From Candidatus Nomurabacteria bacterium (GTDB lineage Bacteria; Patescibacteriota; Minisyncoccia; Phycocordibacterales; UBA9973): a DNA stretch of 64,000 nucleotides. Below the pieces are notes generated by a model. It did no database searches. It was not told where the DNA came from and saw only the letters and a program-made list of their open reading frames with translations. Position numbers and translations under genes: made by a program. Every line of letters begins with the position of its first letter. The stretch's first letter is position 1. The DNA lies in NCBI GenBank assembly GCA_023267195.1, contig JAHFNT010000004.1:64603-128602 (forward strand), read 5' to 3'. Positions 5,595-43,986 of the stretch are shown here, in pieces.

Positions 5595-8155
<2,561 letters not shown>

Positions 8156-8156
8156 A

Positions 8157-21453: not shown

Positions 21454-22089
21454 CTACAAAGGCTTAAATAATTCTTCCAATTCCTTTTTCTTATCGGGGT
21501 TATGTTTAACTTCCTGTAATTTAAGGCCAACTTCCTGTTCTGCAAAATATATGTCTTTGCGGCTCGGCATATCTATAAATTCGTCCAAGGTAACGGGCAA
21601 TAATTTTATTTTTTCCCCCGCGTCCAAATTTAAATTTGAAATTTTTTTCAAACCCTTGGCAATAAAAACATAAACTGCCCAGTCGACTTTTGGGAGCGAG
21701 TTTTGAGCGAACCATAAAATAAATTCGTCCGCAACATACCCGCTTTCCTCCAAGAGCTCTCGCCGTGCCGCAGTCAACACATCTTCCCCTTCATCTACTC
21801 GCCCACCAGTGCCTCCGATAAATAGTCCTTTGCCTGGTTGCTCTTGTTCAGTCAAAAGAATCTTTCCATCCGGCAACACTGCAAAAATCGTCACATTGTC
21901 CGCGCGTTTAGCTTTTTCAAAAATTGCCCGAGTACCATCATACATTTCTTGCTCCCATTGATAAACATCAAAAATTACTCCTTTAAAGACCCTTTTGGCG
22001 TGAGGTGGTATTGGCTGTTTGGGTAAAGGGCGTTCTATGTTCATAAAGTTATTATAAATCATTAAAACCAAGAAACAAACCAGCGCCAA
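21454..22089 (-). CDS. NUDIX hydrolase
   Basis: Nudix box GGTGGRVDEGEDVLTAARRELLEESGY. Confidence 0.8.
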   Translation of the reverse strand: MALVCFLVLMIYNNFMNIERPLPKQPIPPHAKRVFKGVIFDVYQWEQEMYDGTRAIFEKAKRADNVTIFAVLPDGKILLTEQEQPGKGLFIGGTGGRVDEGEDVLTAARRELLEESGYVADEFILWFAQNSLPKVDWAVYVFIAKGLKKISNLNLDAGEKIKLLPVTLDEFIDMPSRKDIYFAEQEVGLKLQEVKHNPDKKKELEELFKPL

Positions 22090-22898
22090 ATCCTTTTTAA
22101 AATATTTACTCTTTCTGGTGGTTGCGGTGATGATTCTGCTTTTATTTCTGGATTTTCAAAAGAAATTACATAATTCACGTATGTTTCAAAACCCCAATTA
22201 AAATTGGAAATTTCGGCATCTTCTTTTTGTTTTTTCAGATTACTGCCTTCAAATAAATGAATAGCTTTGATTGCGCCCTTATCTACTTTATAAGATTCCC
22301 CGGGTGATAAGGTAAACGATTTTCCATCTAATTTAAAATTTACCTCCACATCGCACCTATCTCCCCCGTCGCATTTCAATTCTTCTCCGGGATCTACCAT
22401 TAGTTTACTGTCTTCATAAGAGTAGTCTTGATAGTTGTCATTGATGACGGCAGTTCGCAACTTTCCATCCGGTGAAAATATCCCAGAGAATCTATAACTA
22501 CAAACATGCATAGGTGGGCCATTAATGATGATATCGCCTGCTTTGAGTGAAGTGGCTTTGACGATTTTTTCTGTGAAATTTAATTCATTAAATTTTTTAT
22601 ACAAGGTAAATTCTGATTTGGGTTTTTCAGAAAGTTCAAAATTATTAGCGACATAAGAACCGACAATACCTGCATATTTATCTATACTGTATGTTTGATC
22701 CTCGTTTAAAAAATCAGAAGGGTCAAAAGTGTAAGCCCGGTCTAGTGAAATTTTATAAAAATACTCCTCTTTTTTAATATTATCCACCACACCAATAACA
22801 GGAAAAGCTTCTGCGCACGAAAGCGCTTCCGCTAGATTGCCAAATGGTTCTAAAAATAAAAAAGTTGCGATGATTAGAAAAAATATTTTGTATTGCAT
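22062..22898 (-). CDS. Secreted hypothetical protein
   Basis: 278 aa with an N-terminal signal peptide (FFLIIATFLFLEPFGNLAEA). Confidence 0.5.
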   Translation of the reverse strand: MQYKIFFLIIATFLFLEPFGNLAEALSCAEAFPVIGVVDNIKKEEYFYKISLDRAYTFDPSDFLNEDQTYSIDKYAGIVGSYVANNFELSEKPKSEFTLYKKFNELNFTEKIVKATSLKAGDIIINGPPMHVCSYRFSGIFSPDGKLRTAVINDNYQDYSYEDSKLMVDPGEELKCDGGDRCDVEVNFKLDGKSFTLSPGESYKVDKGAIKAIHLFEGSNLKKQKEDAEISNFNWGFETYVNYVISFENPEIKAESSPQPPERVNILKRIWRWFVSWF

Positions 22899-22902
22899 AT
22901 TT

Positions 22903-22992
22903 TGGCGGAGAGAGAGGGATTCGAACCCTCGGTCCTTTTAAGGGGACGACAGTTTAGTAAACTGTTGGTTTAAACCACTCACCCATCTCTCC
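22903..22992 (-). tRNA. tRNA, Ser-type architecture (long variable arm, G73, encoded CCA). Anticodon loop TTACTAA gives anticodon ACU as read, which is unusual.
   Basis: Acceptor GGAGAGA/TCTCTCC, D stem GGT/ACC, anticodon stem ACAGT/ACTGT, T arm GAGGG-TTCGAAT-CCCTC (identical to the tRNA-Ser(GGA) T arm). Confidence 0.6.
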
Positions 22993-23067
22993 CTATTTGT
23001 TTTTGAGTATAACAGAATCATGGAAAAATACTAATAATATGCTAAAGTAGTTAAGTTATTAAATGAA

Positions 23068-23124
23068 AAAGGAGCCGTGTCAGAGCGGTCTAACGTACCT
23101 CTTTGCTAAAGAGGCAGGGGCTTC
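23068..23124 (+). repeat. Left attachment repeat: a 57-bp direct repeat identical to the 5' half (positions 1-54 plus 3 nt upstream) of tRNA-Ser(GCU) at 35862
   Basis: aaaggagccgtgtcagagcggtctaacgtacctctttgctaaagaggcaggggctt occurs at 23068-23124 and at 35859-35915, then diverges. Confidence 0.8.
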
Positions 23125-23260
23125 CTGAACTCTCTAAACTCTTTCAAACTAAGCCTTTTCTTCAAAAAAGAAATCTCACTGGGATACCTCCTCTTAAGAG
23201 GTAACTCATCACTTAAATAAGAAATCTAACAAATACTTAGCAAGCAATAGAAATATTTCT

Positions 23261-24154
23261 ATGGAAATGCGAGCTTTGTGTCAGCAGTTTTATGATTATT
23301 CATTATCAATTCGTGGTTACTCCAAAGACACGATTAAAAGATATAAATTTACATTAGACTTCTATTGTAAGTTTGCAAACATAACCAATATCAACCAAGT
23401 TTCAGTTGAAAATGTTCGTGCGTTATTTTTTAATGGGAGGTCGGAGCGTAATTGGTCGGTCCATACATTTCTTGTTTACCACAGATCGTTATGTGTATTT
23501 TTCCGCTGGTGTATAGGCCAAGGACTAATAACAAAAAATCCCATAAACGAGATAGAGAAACCAAAACTAGAAAAAAGATTACCCTCAAAACTTACAAAAC
23601 AGGACGCCTTTCGTCTGCTTGAAATAGTTTATAACTATCCATGGCAAAACAAATTCTTGCGTTACAGGAATCATGCCATGTTTGCTACTTTTGTCTTTTG
23701 CGGTTTAAGAAAGAATGAATTATTGAAATTAAAATACACTGATGTAGATATTGATAATCTCACAATATTCATTAAACAAGGGAAAGGATCTAAGGACCGA
23801 ATCTTGCCCATGAGCCCAACGCTAGCAATAATCCTTACGAAATATTTAGAAGAGAGGATGAAACACCAAAAAACATGTCCAGAGTTTTTTGCTTCGCTCC
23901 ACAGAAACACAGGATTAACTTACGGAGGTTTAAGAGACATAGCAGTAATGATTCGCAAATCTTCAAAGATAAACTTTACTATTCACAAACTGAGGCATAG
24001 TTTCGCTTGTATGTTACTTCAAAATGGATGCGATATATATTCACTTTCTCGACTCATGGGCCATTCAGATATTTCCACTACTGCCATATATCTTTCAGCT
24101 TCAGCAGACCATTTACGCTTACAGATGGCGAAACATCCACTTAATGACATTTAG
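23261..24154 (+). CDS. Tyrosine recombinase / integrase (XerC/XerD-phage integrase family)
   Basis: 297 aa. N-terminal SAM-like core-binding domain. C-terminal catalytic region with R...HxxR...Y (KLRHSFACMLLQNG...LMGHSDISTTAIYL). Confidence 0.85.
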   Translation: MEMRALCQQFYDYSLSIRGYSKDTIKRYKFTLDFYCKFANITNINQVSVENVRALFFNGRSERNWSVHTFLVYHRSLCVFFRWCIGQGLITKNPINEIEKPKLEKRLPSKLTKQDAFRLLEIVYNYPWQNKFLRYRNHAMFATFVFCGLRKNELLKLKYTDVDIDNLTIFIKQGKGSKDRILPMSPTLAIILTKYLEERMKHQKTCPEFFASLHRNTGLTYGGLRDIAVMIRKSSKINFTIHKLRHSFACMLLQNGCDIYSLSRLMGHSDISTTAIYLSASADHLRLQMAKHPLNDI

Positions 24155-24216
24155 TGAACCGCTTGGCTTTGCCCTAGCAAATCACTATCTACCAAGCAAC
24201 TATCATATCTTATTTA

Positions 24217-24249
24217 CTCGCTTGGTGCTTGGTAATCACTTATAGTGAT
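24217..24249. repeat. Perfect 14-bp inverted repeat centred on TATA, between the convergent integrase and ATPase genes
   Basis: cttggtaatcactTATAgtgattaccaag. Confidence 0.5.
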
Positions 24250-24280
24250 TACCAAGCCTAACAAGCAAGAAGATTCTCGT

Positions 24281-25363
24281 TTAAAAACCATCTTTAAATT
24301 CAGGGGGCAAAGGCAACGGGAGAAAGAAGAATTTTTCATTGTGAGTTGTTCCGTCTGATATCACAGAAAGTCCTTCTGCTTGTACCTTATCCCAAGTCTT
24401 TGATTTAATTGATTTTACTTCCTCCATTTCTTTTAGGACTTTTCTTAAAGTATGTTCCCCAATAATATCAGCAGATATAAAACCTTTGATGTTGATTCCT
24501 TTACCTCCTTGGTCCTCCAGTAGTTTAATTATCTTTTCAACTACTTTGCTATGTGAATTTTGATTATACTCACCCTCGTAAATAAATGGACTACCCTCAC
24601 CTTTGAGGTTAATAAGAAGACGGAAAGGTTCCATTTTCTTTGCTCCTTTTAATTTTGCTTGTCTGATTATAAGGTATTCTTGTCCATCTTCTTTTTTTGG
24701 TTCTAAACTAAGATGGCCATGTACCGCAGCGTTAATTGCTGTACTTCCACGACTGTCTTCACTATCGCTATTATTATTTTTGAACATATTTTTTTTGCGA
24801 TTGTGATGAGTAAATAGTACGGCTATTCCTGAATTTGTTATTTTCTTTATTTGATCCATTATCTTTTGCATTTCTGTGGCACTGTTTTCTTCTGCATCGT
24901 GGACACTTCTAAGAGAATCTAGAATAATAAAACCGACACCTTTGCCTTTTGCTATAGAGATAATTTGATCTACTGTGCCGTTATCTAATTTTATCTGATT
25001 TTGTATAGAAAAATATATTGATGTTTCGGGCCATTTATTACTTAAGGTATTCATTCTGTCTTTTATTTCAGCTTCAATATCTTCTTCGTTGATAATCCAA
25101 ACTTTTAGTGGTTCACTTACTTCAAAGAAGCCAAATAGAGGTGACCCAATGGCTATCGATATTGCTATGTCTAATGTTAACCAACTTTTATAGTTATTTG
25201 GAGCGGCACTTAGCATGTTCATTGTGTCACTCTGAAATAGTTTATCTATAATCCATTTTGGCTTGATAATCTTTTTCTCACTTAGTTCTTTTGCTGTTAG
25301 TATATTTATGATGTTTTTAGGATGTTCTTGTTGTATTATTTTTGGTTGTTCTAATAAATTCAT
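24281..25363 (-). CDS. AAA_25 / RepA-like RecA-fold ATPase (plasmid/phage replication or helicase-loader type)
   Basis: 360 aa. Degenerate P-loop region (APNNYKSWLTLDIAISIAIGSPLFG), Walker B GFIILDSLRSV and SRGSTAINAAVHGHLSL, typical of AAA_25. Confidence 0.55.
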   Translation of the reverse strand: MNLLEQPKIIQQEHPKNIINILTAKELSEKKIIKPKWIIDKLFQSDTMNMLSAAPNNYKSWLTLDIAISIAIGSPLFGFFEVSEPLKVWIINEEDIEAEIKDRMNTLSNKWPETSIYFSIQNQIKLDNGTVDQIISIAKGKGVGFIILDSLRSVHDAEENSATEMQKIMDQIKKITNSGIAVLFTHHNRKKNMFKNNNSDSEDSRGSTAINAAVHGHLSLEPKKEDGQEYLIIRQAKLKGAKKMEPFRLLINLKGEGSPFIYEGEYNQNSHSKVVEKIIKLLEDQGGKGINIKGFISADIIGEHTLRKVLKEMEEVKSIKSKTWDKVQAEGLSVISDGTTHNEKFFFLPLPLPPEFKDGF

Positions 25364-25372
25364 ATAGTTACA

Positions 25373-25765
25373 TTAATAATAATTTTGAGGCCATTTGTCA
25401 TCAGAAAGTTCTGGATATTTCCTGCACATGGTCCCGTTTTCTTCCTTTTCATTGCCTAACGTTCTATATCTGTGTTCTTCCTTACACTTATCACAGATAT
25501 GTCTAACTTCCTCCGTTTGCTTCATTGTGTCGTTTACTTGTAAACAATTGATATGGTTATAGCAAAATTTGTTTTTGCATTCCCAACATTTTGCTAATGG
25601 ATTTTCATATCTTCTTGCTTTATTGCATTTGAAACACCTTGGACGATAGTGTTTAAATGCCTGTTTTGGCTCAAACGGTACACGTTTTTTTAATGGCACC
25701 GTAGTCGTTTGGATATCAGATACCTTTGTGGGTAAATCTGATACAATTTTTGTGGTTATTTTCAT
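25373..25765 (-). CDS. Cys-rich zinc-finger protein, hypothetical
   Basis: 130 aa with multiple CxxC pairs (CFKCNK, CWECKNKFC, CDKCK). Confidence 0.5.
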   Translation of the reverse strand: MKITTKIVSDLPTKVSDIQTTTVPLKKRVPFEPKQAFKHYRPRCFKCNKARRYENPLAKCWECKNKFCYNHINCLQVNDTMKQTEEVRHICDKCKEEHRYRTLGNEKEENGTMCRKYPELSDDKWPQNYY

Positions 25766-26202
25766 ATAACTTTAAATTAGTTTATTAAGCTGGGGCCAGA
25801 GATGAGTTCCTAAAAATAAGATAGTTTCGACTCCATATTATTTTGGGAACAAGACGCACGAAAAGAGGCATTCTTGAGGTGCCTTTCGCTTTTTACCGAT
25901 GAATTTGAGGGTAAAGCCCAGTATTTTATTATTAGATGATATAAAACCCTTATTAAATGATATCTACGGCCAGGGTTTTCTGATGTATGAATATTATAAT
26001 CTGTAGCTCCAATTTAGAGCGATATATTTTGTGGATAACCTTTTCAAAATAGAAAACCCCAGGTCCATCTAATGGCCTTTTCGGAAATTACCGTAATGAT
26101 GGGATCTAATGCCTTTACAGAAATCTCTATAATCTATACAGCGTTCCATAGCTGCGTAGAATAGAGCTAGACAGAGTAGAAATAGAGCGTAGGGGGACGA
26201 GG

Positions 26203-26487
26203 TTAAAAGTAGGCTAAAAAGCCAAGAACTATCATCTTAAAGTAGGCAATGGAAACAATAGTCACAACAACAGCCAAAAAGCCATAAATGTTCACAGGGA
26301 AGAACTTAAATAACTTCCTTGTCTCAATTGGCGCTTTCTTTAAGGACCATATGCTAGTAAAAACAGAGCACAACAATAAAAGTGAAACGAAGATTATCAT
26401 TGACCTAAGTGAGCTAAAGAAAAGTAAAAAATTGGCCAAAACAAAAAATGTGACTGAGTATAGTAAATATTTCTTTTGATGATTCAT
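26203..26487 (-). CDS. Small membrane protein (3 predicted transmembrane segments), hypothetical
   Basis: 94 aa. Almost entirely hydrophobic helices. Confidence 0.4.
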   Translation of the reverse strand: MNHQKKYLLYSVTFFVLANFLLFFSSLRSMIIFVSLLLLCSVFTSIWSLKKAPIETRKLFKFFPVNIYGFLAVVVTIVSIAYFKMIVLGFLAYF

Positions 26488-26496
26488 ATGTTTATG

Positions 26497-26850
26497 TTAA
26501 TTATTGTCAATAATCGTATCTCGGATTAATTGCATTGTCGCAGGATCTGCTTTACCATTCTTTGCTTCGTTATATCTCTCAATTGCCTTAGTGCAATTAT
26601 TTTCTAAATAAAAAGCAAAACGAGCTTTGGCCATTTCAGCCAGCGATGATCCAGGATTCTTATCATAAAAATTATTTATCCATTTTTCCATAGAATCCGT
26701 TTTTGCTTGAAATCCCGCGTCAGTTTCTGGAAAATCTTCGGGGCAAGTTTGATGCGCTTGTGGTTCTCGTGTCATATAATAAAAATAAGCAACAGCAAGA
26801 ACAGCTATGATAAATATTGGAATATAGATTTTTCTTTTAATTTTTACCAT
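26497..26850 (-). CDS. Membrane-anchored hypothetical protein
   Basis: 117 aa with an N-terminal transmembrane segment (IYIPIFIIAVLAVAYFYY). Confidence 0.4.
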   Translation of the reverse strand: MVKIKRKIYIPIFIIAVLAVAYFYYMTREPQAHQTCPEDFPETDAGFQAKTDSMEKWINNFYDKNPGSSLAEMAKARFAFYLENNCTKAIERYNEAKNGKADPATMQLIRDTIIDNN

Positions 26851-27035
26851 TCCCTTATTTCTTGTGATCTTGGCTCTCCATATCTGTCATTGAATTCTTT
26901 ATCTGTCATTCCATTTATTTCTGAACTTCTATATCCCGAACTCCATATCCATCGACCTATAAGAATTACCACTATAGCAATAAAAATATAGAGGAACATT
27001 TTATTTTTTGATTCTTTTTCCATGATTTTTTAATA

Positions 27036-27770
27036 TTAAAAGCTAAACCATCCTTTTAATCTGGTCCAAAAGCTTTTTGGTTTTTCTTCTGTCGTAGCAG
27101 GAATTTTAATATTTTGATTGGTAATAGTGGGAGTGCTTTCTTTAACTTCTAGTACCTTTTTAACTACAGGAGTTTTTGTTTTTGTTTCTGTCTTTGAAAT
27201 AGGTACAGTGCCACTTCCACCACCACTTGGGAGTTGGTAACTTGTTTCTGTGGGTTTTGAGTTATTTATTTGTACTGGTTGAGGAACAATACACTCAGTT
27301 TTATTTGTATTCCACTCGTAACCACTCTTGCAGTCGCAAATTATGCTTCCTCCACCAATATATAGTCCATTCCATACACTATTTGCCCCATATTTATTAG
27401 GACAGGCTTGATTATTTGTTAAAGACTGTTGTTGAAACTTTTGGTTGTATTGTTGATTTCGTTGTAATTCCAACTGCTGGCGTTGGATATCTAATAGTTG
27501 TTGCTGATATTGCTGTCGTTGCTGTAATAATTTTTGTTGATTTTGTTGTTGTATAAGAGCGTCAAGTCTATCACCAGGTTGGGGAGCAATTTGTATATAT
27601 AAAGGGTTAAGCGATCCACCTGGATAAATTGTTCCATAAGCGTTAACGCTAAAAACAGGCAATGAAAAAATTACTGAAACTAATACAAAAATTATTTTGT
27701 TTTTCATATTTCGCGTAGGTTTTAATTGATAATAGCGAGAACAAAAAAGGTCTCGCGACACAGACGGCAA
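27036..27770 (-). CDS. Secreted Gln-rich coiled-coil protein with C-terminal Cys-containing domain, hypothetical
   Basis: Signal peptide and a Q-rich tract (QQQNQQKLLQQRQQYQQQLLDIQRQQLELQRNQQ). Confidence 0.45.
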   Translation of the reverse strand: MPSVSRDLFCSRYYQLKPTRNMKNKIIFVLVSVIFSLPVFSVNAYGTIYPGGSLNPLYIQIAPQPGDRLDALIQQQNQQKLLQQRQQYQQQLLDIQRQQLELQRNQQYNQKFQQQSLTNNQACPNKYGANSVWNGLYIGGGSIICDCKSGYEWNTNKTECIVPQPVQINNSKPTETSYQLPSGGGSGTVPISKTETKTKTPVVKKVLEVKESTPTITNQNIKIPATTEEKPKSFWTRLKGWFSF

Positions 27771-28250
27771 TTCCTTTCGAAATTGTCACTAGGCTATTTC
27801 TAGCCTAGACCTACGCGAATAGTGTCTGGTCACGAGACCATCTTTATTCGCGTAGGCTTTCATATTTGCACCATGCCATTTCTGGTTTAGGTGTTGTATT
27901 CATATAATACCTCCATTTAACTAATATCACAAATGCAAAATGTACCTAATTTCAAAGCTATTTTCTGAATTTTCTGGGCGATATTTTTTCATAGGCTTGT
28001 TTTCACAAAACCAAATTATTCCAAACAACCCCTATGACCTTTTTCAGTTTTGGGTTCCAGGACAGGCGTGGGTATGTTAACCCCATACGGGTAATTGTAA
28101 GGAATTATTGATTCAAGCCACTGCCCCCATGCCTTATTTTAAATATAGTTATTAGCTCATCAAAACTAAGCTAGTGAGATTAGGTCGAATATATAAGTCT
28201 CAAGATACGAGTTAGTCTCTCGTACAAATTAAATCTATTAAATTAACAAT
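27771..28250. promoter_or_regulatory. Divergent intergenic region of the island with nested inverted repeats. Candidate control or origin region.
   Basis: Hairpin ctaggct-atttct-agcctag. Palindrome tacgcgaata...tggtcacgagacca...tattcgcgta. No ORF. Confidence 0.4.
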
Positions 28251-28577
28251 ATGAAAGCATTAAGTATAAAAGAAATATTAGAGGATGATTCTATTACTTC
28301 TAATTATCAAGGTAGTGAAAAAACCAAAGAGATGGTGGAAGAACAGATCAGAAAAATATATGGAGATAGCGAAGTAAAGAATTACAACCCATATAAAAAT
28401 GCTCTGACTTTCGCTTCATGGATCCGTCTAGGTTATAGACCAAAGAAAGGCAGTAAGGCGCTAAAAAGTATCACTTATGTCGAAAAGAAAGATGCTCAAG
28501 GAAATGTAATTGAAAAATATCCACGCAAAATAAATCTATTTTATTATCGTGCAGTGGAACCAATAAAAGCTAATTAA
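28251..28577 (+). CDS. Hypothetical protein (island cargo)
   Basis: 108-aa ORF, first gene of the plus-strand pair after the divergent region. Confidence 0.4.
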   Translation: MKALSIKEILEDDSITSNYQGSEKTKEMVEEQIRKIYGDSEVKNYNPYKNALTFASWIRLGYRPKKGSKALKSITYVEKKDAQGNVIEKYPRKINLFYYRAVEPIKAN

Positions 28578-28583
28578 AAAATC

Positions 28584-29231
28584 ATGAATAATACAACATA
28601 CAAACCAAGACCAGTCTTATCTCCGATCCAGCCCAAAATCAAGCCAGTGACAAATACTAAAAATGACAGACACCCGATTTACGAAGAGATTAGTAGACTT
28701 TGCCATAGCACCAACTACAATATTAACGTCAGTTTTGAAGAAGATGTCGAGGCATTGGACTCCTTTTCGATACCTGGCTTAGTTGCGGTGAAATGCACTC
28801 TGCGAACACACGGCCAAATAATTGCTTTTGGTCGGTCTTGCTCGGTTTTGGGCAAAATGAATCGTTATGTCGATAGGGTTATTTCTGGTTTAATCGGTGG
28901 AAGTTTTTTATCTGCAGCCAATAACGCAATGAAGGTCCTTGAAACTTTGCGAATGTCGGAAGCAGAAGAAAATATTAGTAGCTTAAATAAAAACAGTATG
29001 AACACACAAACAGCAGTAGCAGATTTTGATGGTTCTAGGCGAGGTTATTACTTTGGTGAAGATTCTGTAGAGGAACCAGAAATGACAAGTAAGCAAAGAG
29101 ATTTCTTAAATCAGCTAATTCTCAACATTGATAACCCAGACACTAGGGAAGAATACTTATCTCAAGTTAATGGTGGATTGTCTCGTGCGGATGCCAGCGA
29201 ACTAATCTCAAGTTTATTACCAATGAAATAG
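28584..29231 (+). CDS. Hypothetical protein (island cargo)
   Basis: 215-aa ORF, 6 nt after the preceding gene. Confidence 0.4.
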   Translation: MNNTTYKPRPVLSPIQPKIKPVTNTKNDRHPIYEEISRLCHSTNYNINVSFEEDVEALDSFSIPGLVAVKCTLRTHGQIIAFGRSCSVLGKMNRYVDRVISGLIGGSFLSAANNAMKVLETLRMSEAEENISSLNKNSMNTQTAVADFDGSRRGYYFGEDSVEEPEMTSKQRDFLNQLILNIDNPDTREEYLSQVNGGLSRADASELISSLLPMK

Positions 29232-29290
29232 GCAGTAATTAAGCAGTTTATGCACAGTAAAGTGGTAAACTGCTTTTTTATTTTAGCTGC

Positions 29291-30991
29291 TTAAAAAATA
29301 TTTGGCAATTTCTTCAATTCACTAAGTAATTCAACGATTGATATTGTATGATGGGGAATCTTTTCTTTTGTAGCGATATGCTTAAACATACCCTCAAGCC
29401 TAGGTTGAATACTGGGAGCAGAAAATATTCCTTCTATAAAATAAGTCTCTCCTATTTTTTTCTGAAGATTCATTATGTGATCGTGAACTGAAGCACCTTC
29501 TGCAGACCACTGCATGGCATTGGCCCTAATAGTTGTTAATTCAAGCACATATGCCTTTTTCTTAATAAAGAAATAAATATCTGGATATCCCTCTTTACCA
29601 CCCAGGGCTGGGTACATTATGCCGAATTCGTCAACCCGTCCATTCCAAATTACATCATCTATTAATCCAAGGTCCTTATACTTTTTTAGTAGTTGAAAAA
29701 ATAAATACTCTAGACGTCCACCTCTAAGCTGTCCTGGATTAAAGTTTGTTTTACCTGTTATCAACCCTACCATATTTATATGATGTGCATATTCAGTGTC
29801 ATAATCATGGCTGTTAATATGATTTAAAATCTTTTCTTCTATTACCTCTTGAGTATCTTCTTTGTATATATTTTGTGGGATGTCTTTTAGAAGAAAATCT
29901 ATTTTGTCAGATTTAATTTGTTTTTGTTCTGAATGGAATAATTCTGCCTTAGTGAAATTAAAGAAATCAAATCGACAGTTTTCTCCTTCAAAAAGAGCTG
30001 TACTGAAATTAGAGGATGCAGAAACCACCCCTGAACTTATTTCTTTATTATCTTTGTTATATATACGTATAAAAGATTTTTCTAATAAGTTAGTAGATAT
30101 ATTTACTAGTAATGGTGGTTTAGTTCTTTTAAAGTCTCCAAAGTAATCAATCCAAAGCATTAAATTATCTCCGAAATCGAATGGTTTTATATCTTTATAT
30201 TTTTCTAAAATAGAGTGGACTTCAGTAATTTTTTCTTCTTTTATATATAAATTATTATTCTTTCGTTCACATAATCCTGTTGCGACACAAAGACCAATAT
30301 AGTAACCAGCAGTTGGGGCTTGTACTAATGTTAGGTTGCCAATTTCTGTATTTTTAAATGCTTCTATCTCAGCACTTCTTCTTTCTTCTGGAAGATGTCT
30401 AAAGGTCTTTATTTTCTCTACAATTAAATTGTATTCATCCTCTTTCTTCATTGAAAAAACTATATAACCTAACTCTTCTTTAGAAATAAAGGTTAGGTCC
30501 AGTAGAAGTTTTAATGTAATACGAAATGGAAACAAGAGAATATTAAGGCAGTCTTCTCTTATAACAGGATTAGTAATTTGTAATTTACTCATTTGACGTT
30601 CAACTATGGTAGATTCCAGAACTTCTTGGCCGTTTGCTGACACAACATTCAGATTTTTACCTAATCCAAGCACTGAACCATGCTTTTTTATTAGTTCAAA
30701 ACCAGCGTTAGTGACATTAATTGTTGAAGGAGTTGTTGTATTATCAATCACAATAAAACCCAAATATTTAATCAGCGCTTCAAGAGTTCTTCTTGCTGAG
30801 GGGGATAAAGGTTTTCCTCTCTCAGTTAGGCCGTATCTTCCTAAAAGGGTATTAAAGTTTTCTTGCTTCATCGAGTTCCAAGATTTTCCGTTAAAATTAT
30901 CAGTAGATAAAATTTCGACAGCACCAATTATCTGATGTATATTTTGTCGTTTTGGAATATGCCAAATTTCTAAACTTCTTGTTCTTGTCAT
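29291..30991 (-). CDS. Putative restriction endonuclease, possibly Type IIS / AlwI-family-like, with a C-terminal PD-(D/E)xK-like core
   Basis: 566 aa. Last gene of the MTase-MTase-X operon, 4 nt after the MTase stop. C-terminal GGRLEYLFF...GYPDIYFFIKKKAYVLELTT resembles a PD...(D/E)xK nuclease core. No MTase motifs. Confidence 0.35.
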   Translation of the reverse strand: MTRTRSLEIWHIPKRQNIHQIIGAVEILSTDNFNGKSWNSMKQENFNTLLGRYGLTERGKPLSPSARRTLEALIKYLGFIVIDNTTTPSTINVTNAGFELIKKHGSVLGLGKNLNVVSANGQEVLESTIVERQMSKLQITNPVIREDCLNILLFPFRITLKLLLDLTFISKEELGYIVFSMKKEDEYNLIVEKIKTFRHLPEERRSAEIEAFKNTEIGNLTLVQAPTAGYYIGLCVATGLCERKNNNLYIKEEKITEVHSILEKYKDIKPFDFGDNLMLWIDYFGDFKRTKPPLLVNISTNLLEKSFIRIYNKDNKEISSGVVSASSNFSTALFEGENCRFDFFNFTKAELFHSEQKQIKSDKIDFLLKDIPQNIYKEDTQEVIEEKILNHINSHDYDTEYAHHINMVGLITGKTNFNPGQLRGGRLEYLFFQLLKKYKDLGLIDDVIWNGRVDEFGIMYPALGGKEGYPDIYFFIKKKAYVLELTTIRANAMQWSAEGASVHDHIMNLQKKIGETYFIEGIFSAPSIQPRLEGMFKHIATKEKIPHHTISIVELLSELKKLPNIF

Positions 30992-30995
30992 AAAA

Positions 30996-32291
30996 TTATT
31001 TTTTAAAAATTAATACATAATCTTTTGGAATAAAGCCTCCTCGACCAAATCTAGGTATTCGTAAATATCTATTTCTAATTATATAAGCAAATTCTAACTC
31101 TTTTGTATATCCTATTGTTTTTGCAATTTTTGAAATTATACTCGATGTATTTACATCAAACCCTCTTATTTTACTATTACCAACAACCATACAATAATGA
31201 CCTCCTTTTTGAAGACAGCTAAAAACGCTTTTTAGGTTTTCTTCCATTGCTCTAAAATACTCAAGGACAACCCAAGCTCTTTTTTTATCAATCAAATATA
31301 TATTATATAACACAGAATCAAGATCTTTGATTCCATATACAGGAATTTCTTTACCCACTTTTACTTTTTCTGAACCCACTTGGTGATTATAAAGCTCATC
31401 TAATTTTTTCTTATTAAAACCATCAAGCCAAAAATTTTCTAATTTCAACGACCTTACATAATCAAATGCATTTATATAGGGAGGCGATGTCATTGCTAGG
31501 TTAATCTTATTTAGATATAAAGACTTATCATCAATATTTCTCGCATCAAATCCAATTATTCTGGCTTCGGCTTTCGAAACTTTAGAAAATTGATCAATAG
31601 CACTTATATATTTCACTAAAGTTTTATAGAACTCATCAAAAACCACCATATGGTCCTTCTTTATTCTAGTTGATATGTAAGGTTTAGGTGATTGATTATC
31701 TGCCTTAGAGACTTTTCTTATAATTGATACTAAAACAATCTCTAAAAAGTTTTTTACTTTTTTATTTTTGTATTTAAAATAATTTGATTGAATTAAATAT
31801 CGAATAAGTGCTAAATCATTTATTGTAACTTCGGAAAACCAGTATTCAATAAGATCTCTTTCGGGAATACATTTTTCTATCTTATTTTTTAACTTGAGTG
31901 GATTTTTTATTGAATTTTTATAGTCAACAATGAATTGATCAATTATAAAAAGTTCTTTTTTTAACAATGGTGTCGTTTTAACACTACTTAAAAGCTTACT
32001 TAATGGATCAATATCCACACCATAACTTGGATATCCTAATAATACTGCTTCAACTAGTGTCGTTCCAGATCCCATAAAAGGGTCCAGTATTCCATATTTT
32101 TTTGTATTTTCTGATGCATAGTTTTCTATAAACCATCTAGGAATGTGAGGTATAAACTTACACGGATATTTAAAAATTCCATGGGTAAAATCTGATATAC
32201 CAACAGCTTTTATTAAAAATACATCCCCACTGTTTGGCTTAGATGGTATTTGTGTTACCTCTATAATTTTTTCTTGGTTATCTTTGCCCAT
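30996..32291 (-). CDS. DNA amino-methyltransferase (N4-cytosine or N6-adenine). Motif I DPFMGSGTT is followed after ~190 aa by motif IV SPPY.
   Basis: DPFMGSGTTLVEA (AdoMet binding) and MTSPPYINAFDY (catalytic). The order I...TRD...IV suggests an alpha-class enzyme, and SPPY favours m4C. Confidence 0.7.
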   Translation of the reverse strand: MGKDNQEKIIEVTQIPSKPNSGDVFLIKAVGISDFTHGIFKYPCKFIPHIPRWFIENYASENTKKYGILDPFMGSGTTLVEAVLLGYPSYGVDIDPLSKLLSSVKTTPLLKKELFIIDQFIVDYKNSIKNPLKLKNKIEKCIPERDLIEYWFSEVTINDLALIRYLIQSNYFKYKNKKVKNFLEIVLVSIIRKVSKADNQSPKPYISTRIKKDHMVVFDEFYKTLVKYISAIDQFSKVSKAEARIIGFDARNIDDKSLYLNKINLAMTSPPYINAFDYVRSLKLENFWLDGFNKKKLDELYNHQVGSEKVKVGKEIPVYGIKDLDSVLYNIYLIDKKRAWVVLEYFRAMEENLKSVFSCLQKGGHYCMVVGNSKIRGFDVNTSSIISKIAKTIGYTKELEFAYIIRNRYLRIPRFGRGGFIPKDYVLIFKK

Positions 32292-32292
32292 T

Positions 32293-33645
32293 TTATTTCT
32301 TCTCTAAATAGATAATACTTTCTCTTAAATATTTGCCGTATTTTTTGGTTTCTTCGTACTGCTGAGAACTAGTTATAATATTACGAGCAACATTTATAGA
32401 TGATACATTAAAACCAAGATGTTTAGCGAATTTCGCTAATAATAAGTCGGTTGGAACAACTATTCCACCATATGCAGAATTACTCACAATAATTACACAA
32501 AAACCTTTTTTCTTTAATGCTTGATATATTTCTGTAAGAGAATGAAACATATCATTAAAATAGGCTTCTACCATTTTTGGTATTCTTTTATCCCAAAGTT
32601 CTTTCTGGGAAAGTTCCGTTACAAGTGTTCCTAACTCTGGTACACTTTTTACTGCAATTTTTGATTCTATCTCATAACCATTCAAATGAGATCTGATGCC
32701 TCTTTTTCTTAGGATTTTTAAATCTGAATATTCTTTCACAAAAGATCCCATCCAGAGTTCTACTTTATATATTTCTGTATAATCAAAACAGTTAGCATAT
32801 GGTGGAGAAAATATAACTCCTTTTACTGAATTCTTCTTTGTGTATTTGTTTAAATTAAAACAGGTGTCTTCTATTACGGAAGTACTTACTTGATTGGATA
32901 TATTAATGGCAAATTCTAAATCCTCACCGATTTTTTTTAATGCGTTAAAAAATATTTTCTTTACATACTCCTTATCTCTAATTGTTTTCTTTATCGTCTT
33001 ACGAATTTTTAATCCGTTACCAGCTTTTCTATAGTTTGATGATTCTTCAAGAATTCCTAACCACGCTAACATTATTAAATCAGCAACCCTCTTATTTTTT
33101 ATTTGCTTAATTTCTTCTTTAATTGTTAAAAGATAAAATAACGCATCTTTTTTAAAAAGTTGTTCAATTGTTGAAAGTTTAGGAATATCAATATTTTGTT
33201 TTTTCTTTATATTGTGAAGCTCAGAAACATTTTCGTAAAAAGAAATCATGTCCTGTTTTTTGTAGTCTTGAGTCTTTACCTTTGCTAAAAATGCAGAAAA
33301 GGGATTTATCTCAAATCCGATACTATTACATTTATTTATTTTTGCTTGCAAAAGAGTACTTCCACTACCACAAAATGGATCGACGATTAAATCACCATCC
33401 TTAACATTGTATTTAGTAAGAATTTTGTCAACTAATTTAATTGAGTAGCCTTCTTTATATCTATACCATCTTTGTATGGGAAGGTTTAAGTCAGAGGCAT
33501 AATTAACAAGACTCTTGTATGTTGTAGAGTTTGTCTTCGGATAATCTACTTTAAATTCTTTTTCTAAAGTGACTAAAAATTTATCATTAAAATTCGGCAT
33601 GTAAAGTACATTCATTTTAGCATTTATTTTACAAATTCTAAACAT
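32293..33645 (-). CDS. DNA amino-methyltransferase, paralogous architecture (motif I DPFCGSGST, motif IV SPPY)
   Basis: DPFCGSGSTLLQA and IFSPPYANCFDY. 1-nt gap to the downstream MTase. Start may be Met11. Confidence 0.7.
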   Translation of the reverse strand: MFRICKINAKMNVLYMPNFNDKFLVTLEKEFKVDYPKTNSTTYKSLVNYASDLNLPIQRWYRYKEGYSIKLVDKILTKYNVKDGDLIVDPFCGSGSTLLQAKINKCNSIGFEINPFSAFLAKVKTQDYKKQDMISFYENVSELHNIKKKQNIDIPKLSTIEQLFKKDALFYLLTIKEEIKQIKNKRVADLIMLAWLGILEESSNYRKAGNGLKIRKTIKKTIRDKEYVKKIFFNALKKIGEDLEFAINISNQVSTSVIEDTCFNLNKYTKKNSVKGVIFSPPYANCFDYTEIYKVELWMGSFVKEYSDLKILRKRGIRSHLNGYEIESKIAVKSVPELGTLVTELSQKELWDKRIPKMVEAYFNDMFHSLTEIYQALKKKGFCVIIVSNSAYGGIVVPTDLLLAKFAKHLGFNVSSINVARNIITSSQQYEETKKYGKYLRESIIYLEKK

Positions 33646-33714
33646 TATCTAATTTTTTACTACAAAATACGACTTTTGGGTTACTTTTTGGCCTTTTTAT
33701 GTGATAATTAGCTT

Positions 33715-35493
33715 ATGAAAATTCAGAGAGTCAAAATCCATAACTGGAGGTCAATAAAAAACATAGACATCTCTTTTGAGAATCTTATGGTTTTTATAGG
33801 CCAGAATAACCACGGGAAATCTAATATTCTTTCAGCCTTGCTCTTTTTCTTCGGTGTAAACAATTGCGTAGAGTTAGATTTTAACAAAGGAGAAGATCAG
33901 ATATTTATTGAGGTAACTTTTATTGATTTAGATGACCACGATAAGGCCCAATTTGCTAAGTATCTTACAAGTGAAAGTTCTATAACTGTAAGAAAACAAA
34001 TAAATAAGGGAGAGTCTTTTGAGTATCACGGTTACTGTCAGATTCCAGGAGAAGATTGGCTAAAAGAAGAGAATATTTCCAACTATGCAACCAGAGAAGC
34101 AATAAACAATACTCCACTAAGTTCACTGGTCCCTTCAACTGGACGGTTAACAAAAGAAATTATTAAGCAAGCGCAACAAGACTATATACAAAAAAATAAT
34201 AGCTCAATAAAATTTTCATATAACTTAGAAGCAACAAATTTTTTAGGATTAAAAAGTGTTGCCCAGGGTATTTTTGGGGAAGTATTTTTTGTTCCTGCAG
34301 TGAAAAATGCAGGTGAAGAGTTCAACATGAAAGGTAAATCTGTATTTAACCAGTTGCTGACAAATGTGATTAACGATATGTCAATCTCAAATCCAGAATA
34401 TATAGAAGTTAAAAAGAAAGTTAGAGAGCTAACACAAATACTTAATAAAAATATTGAAGATGGTTCTCTGAATAATAATAGACCAGAACAAATATCAAAA
34501 TTAGAGAAATTACTTGAGGCAGAATTAGCTAGTTGGAATACTACAATTGATATAGAAATAACTCCACCAGATGTAGATGAAGTATTAAGAGTTGGTACCA
34601 ATGTATGGTTAAATGATGGAGTTCCAACCGATGTAAATCGTAAGGGTAATGGATTACAGAGATCCTTAATCTTTGCACTCATAAAGGCTTGGGCAAAGAT
34701 ATCTCAAGAAGAAAGAAATAAACAAGAAGAACAAGAGGAAGGAGGTACTGCTCGCAAAGCCTCAAAATCAACATTTTTTATTTTTGAAGAACCAGAGTTA
34801 TATTTACATCCTCAGGCACAGCGAGAACTTTATTCTTCACTTAAAAAACTTTCAGAAAATGACAACCAAGTTCTAATTACTACACATTCAAGTTCTTTTA
34901 TTGATCTAGACTTATATAGATCCATTTGCATAGTTTATAAAAATGATATCAAGGAAGGGACCAAGCATTTACAATGTACATCAGATCTATTCAATTCAGT
35001 TGATGACAAGAAAAAGTTTAATATGACTTATTGGATTAATCCAGACAGAGGAGAATTATTTTTTGCTAAGAAGATAATATTAGTTGAAGGTCCCACTGAT
35101 AAGACTGTCGTACCATATTTAGCAAAAAAATTGGATGTGTTTCGCTATGATTACAGTGTCATAGATTGTGGAGGAAAAACCAACATTCAAATTTATATAC
35201 ATTTGTTAAATAATTTTAAATTAAAATATATTGCAGTATATGACAAAGATCATCAAAGTTATAAAACTCCTGATGCTATAGCTTCTGCAGACATAGCCTC
35301 AAAATCAATTGAAGACAATATAAATTCTTCTTACGGAGCATCTATAATTTTAGAAAATGACATAGAAGAAGAGATAGGTATTACTGATGAAAATAACAAA
35401 AATAAACCATATGTTGCCCTCGAACACATTTCAGACACTTCTTTTGTGTTAAGCTCAAGCCTAGAAGAAAAGATTAAAAAAATATTTTTGTAA
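33715..35493 (+). CDS. OLD-family ATP-dependent nuclease: N-terminal ABC ATPase plus C-terminal Toprim (GajA/class-1 OLD-like)
   Basis: N-terminus IHNWRSIKNIDISF..FIGQNNHGKSNILSAL (AAA_15/21 type). Walker B/D-loop FIFEEPELYLHP. C-terminal Toprim ILVEGPTDKTV...IDCGGK...YDKD. Confidence 0.7.
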   Translation: MKIQRVKIHNWRSIKNIDISFENLMVFIGQNNHGKSNILSALLFFFGVNNCVELDFNKGEDQIFIEVTFIDLDDHDKAQFAKYLTSESSITVRKQINKGESFEYHGYCQIPGEDWLKEENISNYATREAINNTPLSSLVPSTGRLTKEIIKQAQQDYIQKNNSSIKFSYNLEATNFLGLKSVAQGIFGEVFFVPAVKNAGEEFNMKGKSVFNQLLTNVINDMSISNPEYIEVKKKVRELTQILNKNIEDGSLNNNRPEQISKLEKLLEAELASWNTTIDIEITPPDVDEVLRVGTNVWLNDGVPTDVNRKGNGLQRSLIFALIKAWAKISQEERNKQEEQEEGGTARKASKSTFFIFEEPELYLHPQAQRELYSSLKKLSENDNQVLITTHSSSFIDLDLYRSICIVYKNDIKEGTKHLQCTSDLFNSVDDKKKFNMTYWINPDRGELFFAKKIILVEGPTDKTVVPYLAKKLDVFRYDYSVIDCGGKTNIQIYIHLLNNFKLKYIAVYDKDHQSYKTPDAIASADIASKSIEDNINSSYGASIILENDIEEEIGITDENNKNKPYVALEHISDTSFVLSSSLEEKIKKIFL

Positions 35494-35861
35494 ATTGAGT
35501 ATGATATCTCTGCAAGAATTTAAGGATGCTCTGGGTGATGAGGCGACAAAACTTACTGAGGAAGAAATACTTAAGCTAAGAGACAATATGGATAAGATGG
35601 CTGACATCTTTTTTACTATGTGGCTGGAAGAAAGAAAGAAGTAAATCAATAGTATTATTGATAATTTAGCGGAAAATCTGCTATTATGAGTTAGTCGAAT
35701 TTTATTATCAAATTAACATGCTTGCGTGTAGTTTTAGATGGTTATTTATGCTCGTTTTTGGCTAAAGAGGTAGGTCATCAAAAACGGGTAGATTTTCACT
35801 TTTTGGGTCCTAAAATCTGAGCAAATCGGATTTAACCCTTGATTTACAAGACTTAATAAAA

Positions 35862-35950
35862 GGAGCCGTGTCAGAGCGGTCTAACGTACCTCTTTGCTAA
35901 AGAGGCAGGGGCTTTAAAACCCCTCGGCGGTTCGAATCCGCCCGGCTCCG
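35862..35950 (+). tRNA. tRNA-Ser (anticodon GCU). Long variable arm, G73, CCA not encoded. This is the integration target of the island.
   Basis: Acceptor GGAGCCG/CGGCTCC, anticodon stem CCTCT/AGAGG with loop TTGCTAA, variable arm GGGGCTTTAAAACCCC, T arm GGCGG-TTCGAAT-CCGCC. Confidence 0.8.
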
Positions 35951-35988
35951 CAAATAAGTTTTGTTATAATAACTTACATAAAACCAAA

Positions 35989-37008
35989 ATGGATAAAGGA
36001 CCAAAAATAAGAATAGTTGGTGGAACTTCCGAAGAGAAAAAAGCAGAAACACGACAAAGGATAAGGAGTAACCTTTTTAATCATCTTGCGTCCATGCCTG
36101 AAAACGAAAGAGGAGATTTTGAAAAATTTGAATATGCTAAATATCCAATAGAAATTGAAATGATTCATTTAGCCAACGAAGAAACTTCCCACCTAATGCA
36201 AGAAGCTGGAATGGAACCTTATGATGTGCCAGTGGAAAATATTCATATAATTCCTCCAGAGCTTTATGAAAAAATAACTGGAACCAAGAAAGCTGGAAGA
36301 ACTAATAGAGTTAAAGAAGTCATAATTCTAAATTCTGCATATTTAGATAGTCCCGTAGCTTTCTACTCCCATATTGTACATGAATTATTGCACCTGAAAG
36401 CTCACTTATCCATCGAAGTTCAAGAAACAGGGGGCGTTCATACAGATGAAACAGTGTATCGTAAAGGTGTAACGGTTTTAGCATCACAACATAGAGAAAG
36501 AAAAGTAGGGTTTCATAAATATCTTGAAGGACTACATGAAGCCATTGTAGCGGAAACAGAAAAAAGATTAGTACTAAAACTACTTGATCAATCTCCACTC
36601 AAGAAAGAAAAAGAGTGGCAATCTTCTGAAGAGGCGGTAAAATTAAAAAAGCAAATTGCAAAAGAAAGTGGTGTATCTGAAGAAGATATTATTTGGATTG
36701 ATGCAGAGGACAAAACCAAATTTGAGATAGGAAGTTATAACTCACAGAGGAAAGTACTAAACTTTGTTTGTACTGAGATATACAAAAAATTTGGAGAGCA
36801 ATTCAAAAGTGTAGATGATGTATATAAATTATTTTTAAATGTAAATTTCACTGGACAACTTTTGCCAATTGCTCGCCTTATCGAAAAAACTTTTGGAAAA
36901 GGAAGCTTTAGATTGTTGGGTAATATGGGCACAGACAAAGAAAGCGGGGTCTGGTGTTTGGAATTGCTAAAGGAGACACGTACACATCAGACAACAGCAA
37001 TGATCTAG
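35989..37008 (+). CDS. Hypothetical protein with HExxH motif (putative zinc-dependent peptidase)
   Basis: 339 aa. HELLH within SHIVHELLHLKAH. Confidence 0.4.
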   Translation: MDKGPKIRIVGGTSEEKKAETRQRIRSNLFNHLASMPENERGDFEKFEYAKYPIEIEMIHLANEETSHLMQEAGMEPYDVPVENIHIIPPELYEKITGTKKAGRTNRVKEVIILNSAYLDSPVAFYSHIVHELLHLKAHLSIEVQETGGVHTDETVYRKGVTVLASQHRERKVGFHKYLEGLHEAIVAETEKRLVLKLLDQSPLKKEKEWQSSEEAVKLKKQIAKESGVSEEDIIWIDAEDKTKFEIGSYNSQRKVLNFVCTEIYKKFGEQFKSVDDVYKLFLNVNFTGQLLPIARLIEKTFGKGSFRLLGNMGTDKESGVWCLELLKETRTHQTTAMI

Positions 37009-43982: not shown

Positions 43983-43986
43983 ATTG

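Follow-up and report, generated by a model that had tools for sequence, protein, structure and literature searches.

The window analyzed here is a 64,000-nucleotide stretch from a Candidatus Nomurabacteria bacterium, one of the Paceibacteria of the candidate phyla radiation (CPR). Within it, two directly repeated copies of part of a tRNA-Ser(GCU) gene enclose an interior of 12,734 bp (12,791 bp with one repeat copy included), and 13 open reading frames (ORFs) span the interval between the repeats. From left to right, the interval carries a tyrosine integrase gene (int), an AAA_25 ATPase gene, a Cys-rich ORF, a group of small membrane or secreted proteins, the LOOT RNA, a pair of genes encoding 108-aa and 215-aa proteins, a restriction-modification (R-M) cassette, and a gene for an OLD-family nuclease (Table 1). 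An earlier reading of the sequence (the original prediction) took this interval for an integrative element inserted into tRNA-Ser(GCU), with the repeats as its attachment sites attL and attR. That signature of site-specific integration is supported by the exactness of the repeat, the empty sites found in relatives, and the foreign composition of the interior. We consider it very probable that the interval is a site-specific integrative element (a genomic island) put into the tRNA-Ser(GCU) gene of this bacterium by a tyrosine integrase.

A repeat finder returned the two copies as the sole long pair in 20–40 kb of the window: 57 nt at 100% identity, at 23067–23123 and 35858–35914. Base-by-base comparison fixed these limits, with different flanking bases on the left (A/T) and on the right (C/T). 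The repeat consists of AAAA followed by nt 1–53 of tRNA-Ser(GCU), and its right end falls in the variable arm. The original prediction was correct that the 57-bp repeat is real and exact, but it placed the left copy one base too far along, at 23068–23124, and divided the repeat into 3 upstream and 54 tRNA nucleotides rather than 4 and 53. An exact repeat of 57 bp in 64 kb cannot have arisen by chance. ARAGORN calls tRNA-Ser(GCU) intact at 35862–35951 (+), together with three further tRNAs in the window, and makes no call at the left copy, which comprises nt 1–53 and is missing both the T arm and the acceptor 3' strand. Because those parts are absent, the left copy is not a tRNA paralogue, the outcome that the prediction had itself named as fatal; the duplicated part is the 5' half of the gene, as it had proposed. 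Depending on where in the repeat the crossover fell, part or all of nt 1–53 of the tRNA at attR would be element-derived; a crossover at the anticodon loop would make the element-derived part extend up to about nt 31–38.

The ORF that starts 137 bp past the left repeat encodes a tyrosine integrase, as anticipated for the gene just inside attL. It matches Pfam Phage_integrase (2.6e-29), a SAM-like N domain, and the PHROG integrase family (2.6e-49), and all six catalytic residues are present and invariant in 15 relatives (R150, K175, H242, R245, H268, and Y277). We also considered whether the recombinase could be a chromosomal XerC, XerD, or XerA, an alternative raised for XerC/D alongside the prediction, and rejected this identity: the NCBIfam scores are about half the cutoffs for XerC (168 versus 335 bits) and XerD (161 versus 330) and under the cutoff for XerA (172 versus 220), and close relatives of the enzyme always lie beside a truncated tRNA-Ser. 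In all, 1,662 relatives were found at an E value of 1e-10 or below. In a scan of species-representative genomes with the integrase alignment, no relative above 64% identity appeared among the matches listed, and the subgroup at 79–90% identity described below was not recovered there; the best among the matches listed, 58–64% identical, belong to Paceibacteria, Parcubacteria, Minisyncoccia, Saprospiraceae, Mucilaginibacter, and Ignavibacteria. The integrase family is unusually conserved across phyla, with 58–66% identity between Paceibacteria and Saprospiraceae, Mucilaginibacter, or Ignavibacteria. In the Saprospiraceae loci, a tRNA-Lys(CUU) gene comes after the integrase gene and is encoded on the opposite strand.

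The composition of the interval was expected to be more AT-rich than the flanks, and both the guanine-plus-cytosine (GC) content and the tetranucleotide profile clearly set it apart. GC is 32.5% in the element interior and 39.6% in the rest of the window. Same-size windows outside the element have a mean GC of 39.7% with a standard deviation of 1.1 and a minimum of 37.8%, placing the element about 6.5 standard deviations below them. The tetranucleotide distance between element and flanks is 0.249, about twice the maximum among flank windows (0.134). The half with the R-M cassette and the OLD gene is the most AT-rich part of the element (30.3% GC), and the R-M cassette includes the lowest GC of the window (27–31%).

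We next compared the locus with unoccupied sites in relatives. A 36-nt piece of the tRNA, scanned through a metagenome collection, matched at least 120 loci. These related loci belong to species other than the window host, their RecG proteins being at most 87% identical to that of the window, and RecG relatives that carry names (83–86% identity) come from metagenome-assembled genomes (MAGs) of Parcubacteria, Paceibacterota, Nomurabacteria, and Minisyncoccia, which identifies the window host as a CPR bacterium. The matched tRNA copies are full length in all 120 listed loci except three that are cut by a contig end. By tblastn, element proteins had zero matches in these 120 loci, whereas the flank genes were matched repeatedly (RecG, a 119-aa protein, a NUDIX protein, and a 402-aa protein). 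ARAGORN places tRNA-Ser(ACU) beside tRNA-Ser(GCU) in 89 of the 120. The pair is divergent in 80 loci, with a gap of 68–1,358 bp (median, 89.5 bp) that is 130 bp or less in 63. In the window, 78 bp separate tRNA-Ser(ACU) from the truncated copy and 12,869 bp separate it from the intact tRNA-Ser(GCU). The left flank, the promoter, and the stump thus represent the native 5' side of the gene and the sequence from the tRNA 3' part onward its native right side, so that what lies between has been inserted. The empty-site comparison that the original prediction called for therefore yields 80 related loci with adjacent tRNAs and no element genes, all from other species. Exact look-ups of the flanking proteins turned up no empty-site allele; the fragments that they found were all from one sample and matched the window at 100% identity.

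The same junction recurs beyond the window. We recovered the junction context in seven contigs whose integrases are 79–90% identical to that of the window. Six other loci (L129, L123, L125, the L131 group, L302, and L303) present a native flank, a 3'-truncated tRNA-Ser(GCU), 110–130 bp, and then int; integrase identity to the window is 89% in L129, 80% in L123/L124, 88% in L125, 89% in L131–L135, and about 90% in L302/L303. The native promoter, together with the ACU tRNA or RecG, is seen in most siblings whose contig extends upstream. One sibling, L129 (GCA_041643075.1), is complete: an exact 66-bp repeat recurs at a spacing of 7,252 bp (7.25 kb), and the order runs from tRNA-Ser(ACU) through the native promoter, nt 1–65 of tRNA-Ser(GCU), int, and 6 kb of other cargo to an intact tRNA-Ser(GCU). 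Stump lengths across the elements are 53, 62, 65, 66, about 66, and 79 nt, the 53 nt of the window being the shortest. The siblings also have features of their own. L125 has, within 1902–3422 and 4100–4454, a Y1 transposase-like gene with four copies of a REP-like palindrome (ACTTGGGAGCTAAGCTCCCAAGT) nearby, an interrupted second piece resembling tRNA-Ser, and an ORF of GIY-YIG type that reads into the truncated tRNA. In L303, the variable slot beside int holds a defense-like cargo gene for a 907-aa KAP-family NTPase (1254–3977). A large serine recombinase gene lies just outside attR in L129 (15426–16991).

Among more distant relatives, L141 shows the usual 3' polarity, and others have the gene layout that goes with it. 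In CPR relatives with integrases 58–64% identical to that of the window, an intact tRNA (Lys-UUU, Pro-GGG, or Thr-GGU) lies directly upstream of int on the same strand. This layout is seen in L141 (60% integrase identity), and five others at 58–64% match it. At the far end of L141 is a 43-nt repeat of tRNA-Lys nt 32–74, beginning with the first anticodon-loop base and reaching the 3' end, and because this repeat starts at nt 32, the exchange site of L141 can be placed at the anticodon loop. L141 is a minimal 1.9-kb element (6488–8440) with little beyond tRNA-Lys, the integrase gene, and the 43-nt repeat. A 3' tRNA fragment at the far end was not found within the fetched flanks of L136, L138, L140, and L216. 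In two loci of the usual layout, a short piece of the 5' end of the target tRNA precedes the intact gene by about 120 nt (L142, 9732–9768; L136, 9732–9748), the piece in L142 corresponding to nt 1–38 at 89% identity; these may be scars of earlier events.

Integration could have produced the arrangement in the window as follows. The anticodon stem-loop is the only dyad within the 57-bp identity block, and sequences resembling the anticodon stem occur in both att arms. From the sequence, the crossover in the window would have fallen at the 7-nt anticodon loop, as in L141, with the homology extending the opposite way. In the mechanism that we propose, attP would carry the 5' part of the tRNA (-4 to +53) in place of the usual 3' part, and recombination, most likely across the 7-nt loop, would leave at attL, directly before int, the upstream flank of the host, the native promoter, and a tRNA stump of 53 nt. 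At attR, a full-length tRNA gene would be regained, with its 5' portion derived from the element. The 5' polarity of the tRNA-Ser subgroup may go back to an attP that once held a nearly full tRNA, the int-side part of which then eroded (79, 66, 65, 62, and 53 nt).

Such an exchange would also redistribute promoters. Among 102 distinct upstream regions of the orthologous gene, 85 have a motif of the form TGnTAnnnT (mostly TAGAGT or TAAAGT) at 10–36 nt before the tRNA. The window has this extended -10 motif 22 nt before the attL copy and none within 70 nt of the intact tRNA-Ser(GCU). The rebuilt tRNA would have lost its own promoter, and its transcription would have to come from element DNA. It could start at a promoter-like site 174 nt upstream, the hexamers of which are kept in the independent element L129 (TTGATA-N17/18-TATTAT), or come from read-through of the OLD gene; a scan found no terminator-like site from the end of the OLD gene, or from the promoter-like site, to the tRNA. 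The host tRNA promoter, for its part, would now read through the stump toward int, and no terminator-like site was found by the scan between promoter or stump and int. The promoter-like site belongs to the P arm, about 210 nt inside attR. By inspection, this arm is roughly 85–90% identical in the window and L129, and the conserved stretch takes in both the promoter-like site and the near-copy of the anticodon loop and 3' stem (GCTAAAGAGGTAGG). On the other side, the arms of the P' palindrome (ACC-C ... AGAGGT) are invariant in five independent elements, and the palindrome is present also in L302 and L303. This palindrome could be an accessory integrase-binding site or an int operator or repressor site.

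The element is of a kind already known, a tyrosine-integrase tRNA island, in a rarer 5' configuration and from a little-documented lineage. In pSAM2 at tRNA-Pro and HP1 at tRNA-Leu, the block of identity begins at the anticodon loop and extends to the tRNA 3' end, and a classification of such tRNA-integrating elements is said to have been given by Williams in 2002. Elements of this type have a symmetric anticodon stem-loop as their target and attP beside int, which L141 fits exactly. In the window, by contrast, the homology runs from the loop to the 5' end (-4 to 53) and parts the gene from its promoter. Islander lists 159 of 3,919 tRNA or tmRNA gene (tDNA) islands, about 4%, with a 5' fragment (PMC4383910, Table 1), and its filter admits such a fragment only if it lies upstream of the tDNA and the island is 2–200 kb long (PMC4383910). 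As in the tyrosine-integrase islands of that set, an intact tDNA and a co-oriented cognate end fragment, here 100% identical and on one replicon, surround a segment with a tyrosine integrase gene (23261–24154); the 5' fragment precedes the tDNA by 12.8 kb, a length within the admitted range, and the site is unoccupied in relatives. The crossover in Islander islands is centered on the anticodon region ("site A"), as we infer for the window (PMC4383910), but 5' polarity is a minority class there, whereas the entire 79–90% integrase subgroup uses it here. The integrases and islands specific for dusA are another case of a tyrosine integrase targeting a 5' end (PMC4482086), although dusA is a protein-coding target with a different integrase family and the likeness is by analogy only.

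We then examined what the element carries. Its parts could be assigned to three groups: an integration module (the attP arms and int), a conserved backbone, and a swappable defense cargo. The backbone here consists of the LOOT RNA, the 108-aa/215-aa pair, the small membrane or secreted proteins, and the AAA_25 helicase. LOOT (Rfam RF03000) scores 55.8 bits against a gathering threshold of 46.4 and covers positions 1–121 of the 121 in the model; its minimum free energy is -53 kcal/mol (z = -8.4). Visual inspection shows a TATTAT hexamer about 10 nt before the RNA and a hairpin with a T-run after it, at 27743–27765. LOOT is found in nine distinct elements, the window and eight others: by Rfam in L123 (8847–8974), L125 (6168–6286), L129 (12720–12847), L136 (15392–15509), L138 (14159–14272), and L140 (15161–15278), and by a covariance model built from these copies in L216 (2948–3070) and L219 (7265–7390). 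Rfam found none in seven non-CPR loci with 37–66% integrases (Bacteroidota, Ignavibacteria, and one Multivoradales MAG). The covariance model found none in about 70 loci with distant integrases, and its best E value in the 120 listed empty-site loci (719 kb) was 0.7, indicating absence. The Rfam entry treats the LOOT motif as a candidate small RNA only (type "Gene; sRNA"), whereas here it is a constant part of one element family; a literature search found no paper on its function or genomic context.

Several of the backbone proteins likewise recur with LOOT. The 108-aa protein has a sub-threshold ArdC-N match, and a model of the 215-aa protein shows only weak Mgm101/RAD52-like or dsRBD-like similarity; the 215-aa alignment is too divergent to serve as a locus scan. 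L216/L217, at tRNA-Thr(CGU) with a 61% integrase, encode homologues of the 108-, 215-, 117-, and 94-aa proteins. In L219–L222, the 108-aa and 215-aa proteins are 98% and 96% identical; two of these four contigs carry a large serine recombinase gene (L219, 3263–4957; L221, 1520–3214), and all have a methyltransferase gene, followed by a ResIII-type helicase gene where the contig is long enough. L216 and L219 encode homologues of the 94-aa and 117-aa proteins, and L123 and L138 encode homologues of the 244-aa protein; the order 215-aa, 108-aa, LOOT, and secreted protein is found also in L138. Loci with int plus LOOT also adjoin tRNA-Lys, -Pro, and -Thr. The backbone recurs with differing recombinases and cargo; it is thus held in common, and the recombinase and the defense cargo are exchanged. 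Whether these loci form an undescribed modular family of Paceibacteria elements, with LOOT, the 108-aa/215-aa pair, and membrane or secreted proteins as backbone and with interchangeable integration modules and defense cargo, we judge to be evenly balanced. Such a family would have as integration modules either a large serine recombinase or tyrosine integrases, the latter targeting tRNA-Ser or, in one sibling, tRNA-Thr.

The remaining gene assignments of the original prediction fared well with one exception. The RepA-like AAA_25 ATPase was recovered (Table 1), with PHROG matches to the C-terminal (helicase) parts of primase/helicase families; its counterpart in L123 is 640 aa long, with an extra NrS1-1 pol-like domain. 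The listing of small membrane and secreted proteins was right: there are four such ORFs, without family matches in Pfam and PHROG scans. The "zinc-finger protein" did not hold up: the 130-aa ORF is rich in Cys but matches no family significantly. The "putative nuclease" could be sharpened to a full-length AlwI-type Type II restriction endonuclease (PADLOC REase_II, 1.8e-103 over residues 3–552 of 566; Pfam RE_AlwI, 3.2e-09). The two DNA methyltransferases proved to be of Type II (PADLOC MTase_II, 3.4e-93 and 4.6e-96; Pfam N6_N4_Mtase), and the OLD-family nuclease has AAA_15 (3.5e-38, residues 1–396) and OLD-like_TOPRIM (3.5e-18, residues 449–512) matches in Pfam and an Old match in PADLOC (1.2e-71).

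An asymmetric Type IIS site needs two separate methyltransferases, and the cassette appears to place an AlwI-type endonuclease beside methyltransferases for both strands. With its full-length REase_II, MTase_II, and Old matches, the window resembles AlwI-family R-M systems and OLD nucleases (P2 Old and relatives of Gabija GajA). We rejected an assignment to Gabija: the GajA models match more weakly than Old, the neighbors are a methyltransferase gene and the tRNA, and, in contrast to Gabija, the OLD gene stands alone with no adjacent GajB/UvrD-like helicase. The OLD gene has a near-identical counterpart in L216 (9986–11933), which matches window positions 33700–35650 with 98.6% identity in protein and 92% in DNA over 1,953 bp. 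The AlwI-type R-M system of L216 differs, its endonuclease being unrelated to that of the window at an E value of 1e-4. An OLD protein 98.6% identical in a tRNA-Thr sibling whose integrase is only 61% identical indicates a recent exchange of a single defense gene between elements. Together, the AlwI-type R-M system and OLD would protect the host and stabilize the island.

Table 1. Features of the element, its borders, and the adjoining host tRNA (window positions)
Feature	Coordinates	Strand	Evidence or remark
tRNA-Ser(ACU), host; conserved divergent partner in the native left flank, outside the element	22903..22992	-	ARAGORN; Rfam tRNA 59 bits
Native extended -10 motif TGCTAAAGT of tRNA-Ser(GCU), stranded at attL and pointing into int	23040..23048	+	Upstream-region comparison
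attL, 57-bp repeat copy	23067..23123	+	4 nt plus tRNA nt 1-53 (23071-23123); no ARAGORN tRNA
Anticodon stem-loop CCTCT-TTGCTAA-AGAGG in attL, probable crossover core	23098..23114	+	Repeated at 35889-35905 in attR
P' arm palindrome TACCTC-CTCTTAA-GAGGTA, in the attL-int interval	23185..23203	+	Resembles anticodon stem
Tyrosine integrase (int), 297 aa, Xer-like two-domain, without separate arm-binding domain	23261..24154	+	Pfam, PHROG
AAA_25 (RepA/DnaB-like) ATPase, 360 aa	24281..25363	-	Pfam AAA_25 3.6e-25
Cys-rich 130-aa ORF	25373..25765	-	Translation; zinc-finger matches insignificant, E > 0.3
Four small membrane/secreted proteins	26203..27770	-	Translations
 94 aa; 117 aa; 59 aa	26203-26487; 26497-26850; 26844-27023	-	
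 Signal-peptide, Gln-rich, Cys-rich protein (244 aa)	27036-27770	-	Likely true start 27707
LOOT RNA (Rfam RF03000), four hairpins, divergent from the 108-aa/215-aa operon	27766..27893	-	Rfam
Backbone pair: 108 aa (28251-28577) and 215 aa (28584-29231)	28251..29231	+	No significant family
Type II R-M cassette, AlwI family, probably Type IIS	29291..33645	-	PADLOC, Pfam
 Restriction endonuclease; two methyltransferases	29291-30991; 30996-32291, 32293-33645	-	
OLD-family nuclease, ABC ATPase plus TOPRIM, stand-alone	33715..35493	+	Pfam, PADLOC
Promoter-like TTGATA-N18-TATTAT with TG, P arm, candidate replacement tRNA promoter	35658..35687	+	Consensus scan 10/12
GCTAAAGAGGTAGG, near-copy of anticodon loop and 3' stem, putative accessory integrase half-site	35761..35774	+	Conserved with L129
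attR, repeat copy 35858-35914 inside intact tRNA-Ser(GCU)	35858..35950	+	ARAGORN, sequence, identity check

We also weighed other explanations of the locus. That nothing was inserted here, so that the left copy would be a tRNA paralogue in decay or the product of a local duplication and the recombinase would be a chromosomal Xer-type enzyme, is scarcely credible. The integrase does look Xer-like, aligning over its full length with the XerC, XerD, and XerA models and being labeled XerD by one source, and relatives differ in how the tRNA pair is oriented with respect to RecG, as in a region that rearranges. Against this stand the low Xer scores, the abrupt end of the identity in the variable arm and its inclusion of 4 nt of 5' flank, the 80 relatives with nothing between two adjacent tRNAs, the foreign composition of the interior, and the recurrence of the stump-plus-int junction in unrelated host contexts. 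The nature of the inserted DNA is a separate matter. We rejected an assignment as a prophage: the 13 ORFs matched only integrase, primase/helicase-type, and methyltransferase families among PHROGs, and no Pfam structural match was found. An integrative conjugative or mobilizable element was rejected as well, with no relaxase, coupling protein, or type IV secretion Pfam domain in the element ORFs. It is also improbable that the element is a temperate virus or phage satellite, such as a small membrane-containing virus or a relative of phage-inducible chromosomal islands (PICI) or P4, instead of a plasmid-like island. Several features of the element are frequent in phages and satellites, namely a size of 12.8 kb, a terminal integrase, a primase-helicase-type helicase, a membrane/secreted cluster, and a weak resemblance of the 215-aa protein to the RAD52/Mgm101 fold; however, none of the 13 ORFs matches PHROG structural, packaging, or lysis families, and elsewhere the same backbone is associated with a serine recombinase and other cargo without added virion genes. 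IMG/VR contained no match to the conserved P-arm motif or to the tRNA/att 36-mer, and the integrase alignment search there returned nothing above 36% identity, which indicates that the element family is unrepresented among catalogued viral contigs.

Other observations weigh against a mobile integrative element more generally, or against details of the proposed mechanism. All seven contigs with 79–90% integrases are integrated, and no excised attP form was seen among them. Pfam and PHROG searches recognized no excisionase, relaxase, packaging, or capsid gene in the element ORFs. The helicase of the window lacks the primase/polymerase domain found in L123, and L129 has no helicase at all, which makes autonomous replication doubtful. 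An exact repeat cannot reveal the point of crossover. The promoter scan of the P arm found 2 sites versus 1.4 in shuffled sequence, leaving conservation in L129 as the sole support for the promoter-like site. Searches yielded no empty site from a conspecific genome, and the best-matching RecG is 87% identical. The genes immediately outside the tRNA pair (22062–22898 and 35989–37008) have no homologues in the 120 listed loci. Some of these points would fit a fixed relic, in which the same integration took place but excision or transfer has been lost and the element persists through an element-dependent tRNA and an addictive R-M system. In favor of a relic, one can cite the unrecognized excisionase, relaxase, and packaging genes, the helicase shorter than that of L123, an int-side tRNA remnant that is the shortest in the family (53 nt versus 62, 65, 66, and 79), the absence of an episomal junction from every contig, and the presence of the same configuration in two assemblies of one sample. 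We nevertheless regard a relic as rather unlikely, given the 100% identity of the repeats over 57 bp, an integrase that is intact and keeps every catalytic residue, and the conservation of the arm motifs. tRNA function protects part of the repeat identity at attR alone, so that a stump still intact at attL speaks for a recent event. Moreover, integrases about 90% identical reside in hosts whose flanking proteins are 57–82% identical, which points to recent horizontal movement of the family. On balance we favor an integrative element, the current mobility and transfer route of which we infer rather than observe.

The neighborhood of the insertion has peculiarities of its own. The two genes immediately outside the tRNA pair, 22062–22898 (-; 278 aa) and 35989–37008 (+; 339 aa), have no family matches, and the 36–38 kb stretch likewise has a low GC content. 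The neighborhood may hold older insertions, and these genes are possible remnants at the same hotspot. Relative to RecG, the divergent tRNA-Ser pair occurs in opposite orientations in different relatives, one in L102, L027, and L076 and the other in L024, L071, and L059; this variation indicates that the neighborhood rearranges repeatedly. The conserved tRNA-Ser(ACU) has an A at the wobble position. A34 is unusual in bacteria outside tRNA-Arg(ACG), and AGY codons are already decoded by the neighboring tRNA-Ser(GCU); a literature search on the role of tRNA-Ser(ACU) returned nothing. Farther to the right, a tRNA-Ile with anticodon UAU lies at 43986–44060 (-) and is present in 14 related loci too, which suggests AUA decoding without lysidine in the lineage of the window.

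Mobile elements of CPR bacteria, including Patescibacteria, are poorly catalogued, and their hosts cannot be grown alone; cleanly delimited elements are the main handle on gene exchange and defense in this group. The island described here offers exact borders, at least six sibling junctions including one complete element, and a demonstrated empty-site architecture, and its AlwI-type R-M and OLD defense cassette has visibly moved between elements. It is also a clear case of integration that replaces the 5' half of a tRNA gene, in which the element would have to supply a promoter and int is placed behind the host tRNA promoter. Because the target tRNA segment is conserved in at least 120 metagenomic loci, the integrase and its att site may be a starting point for an insertion tool in Paceibacteria. 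Finally, an orphan RNA, LOOT, gains a reproducible genomic context. If the modular family is real, LOOT would be an RNA of the element, acting in replication control, in copy-number or immunity regulation, or as a partner of the 215-aa protein, and not a small RNA of the host.

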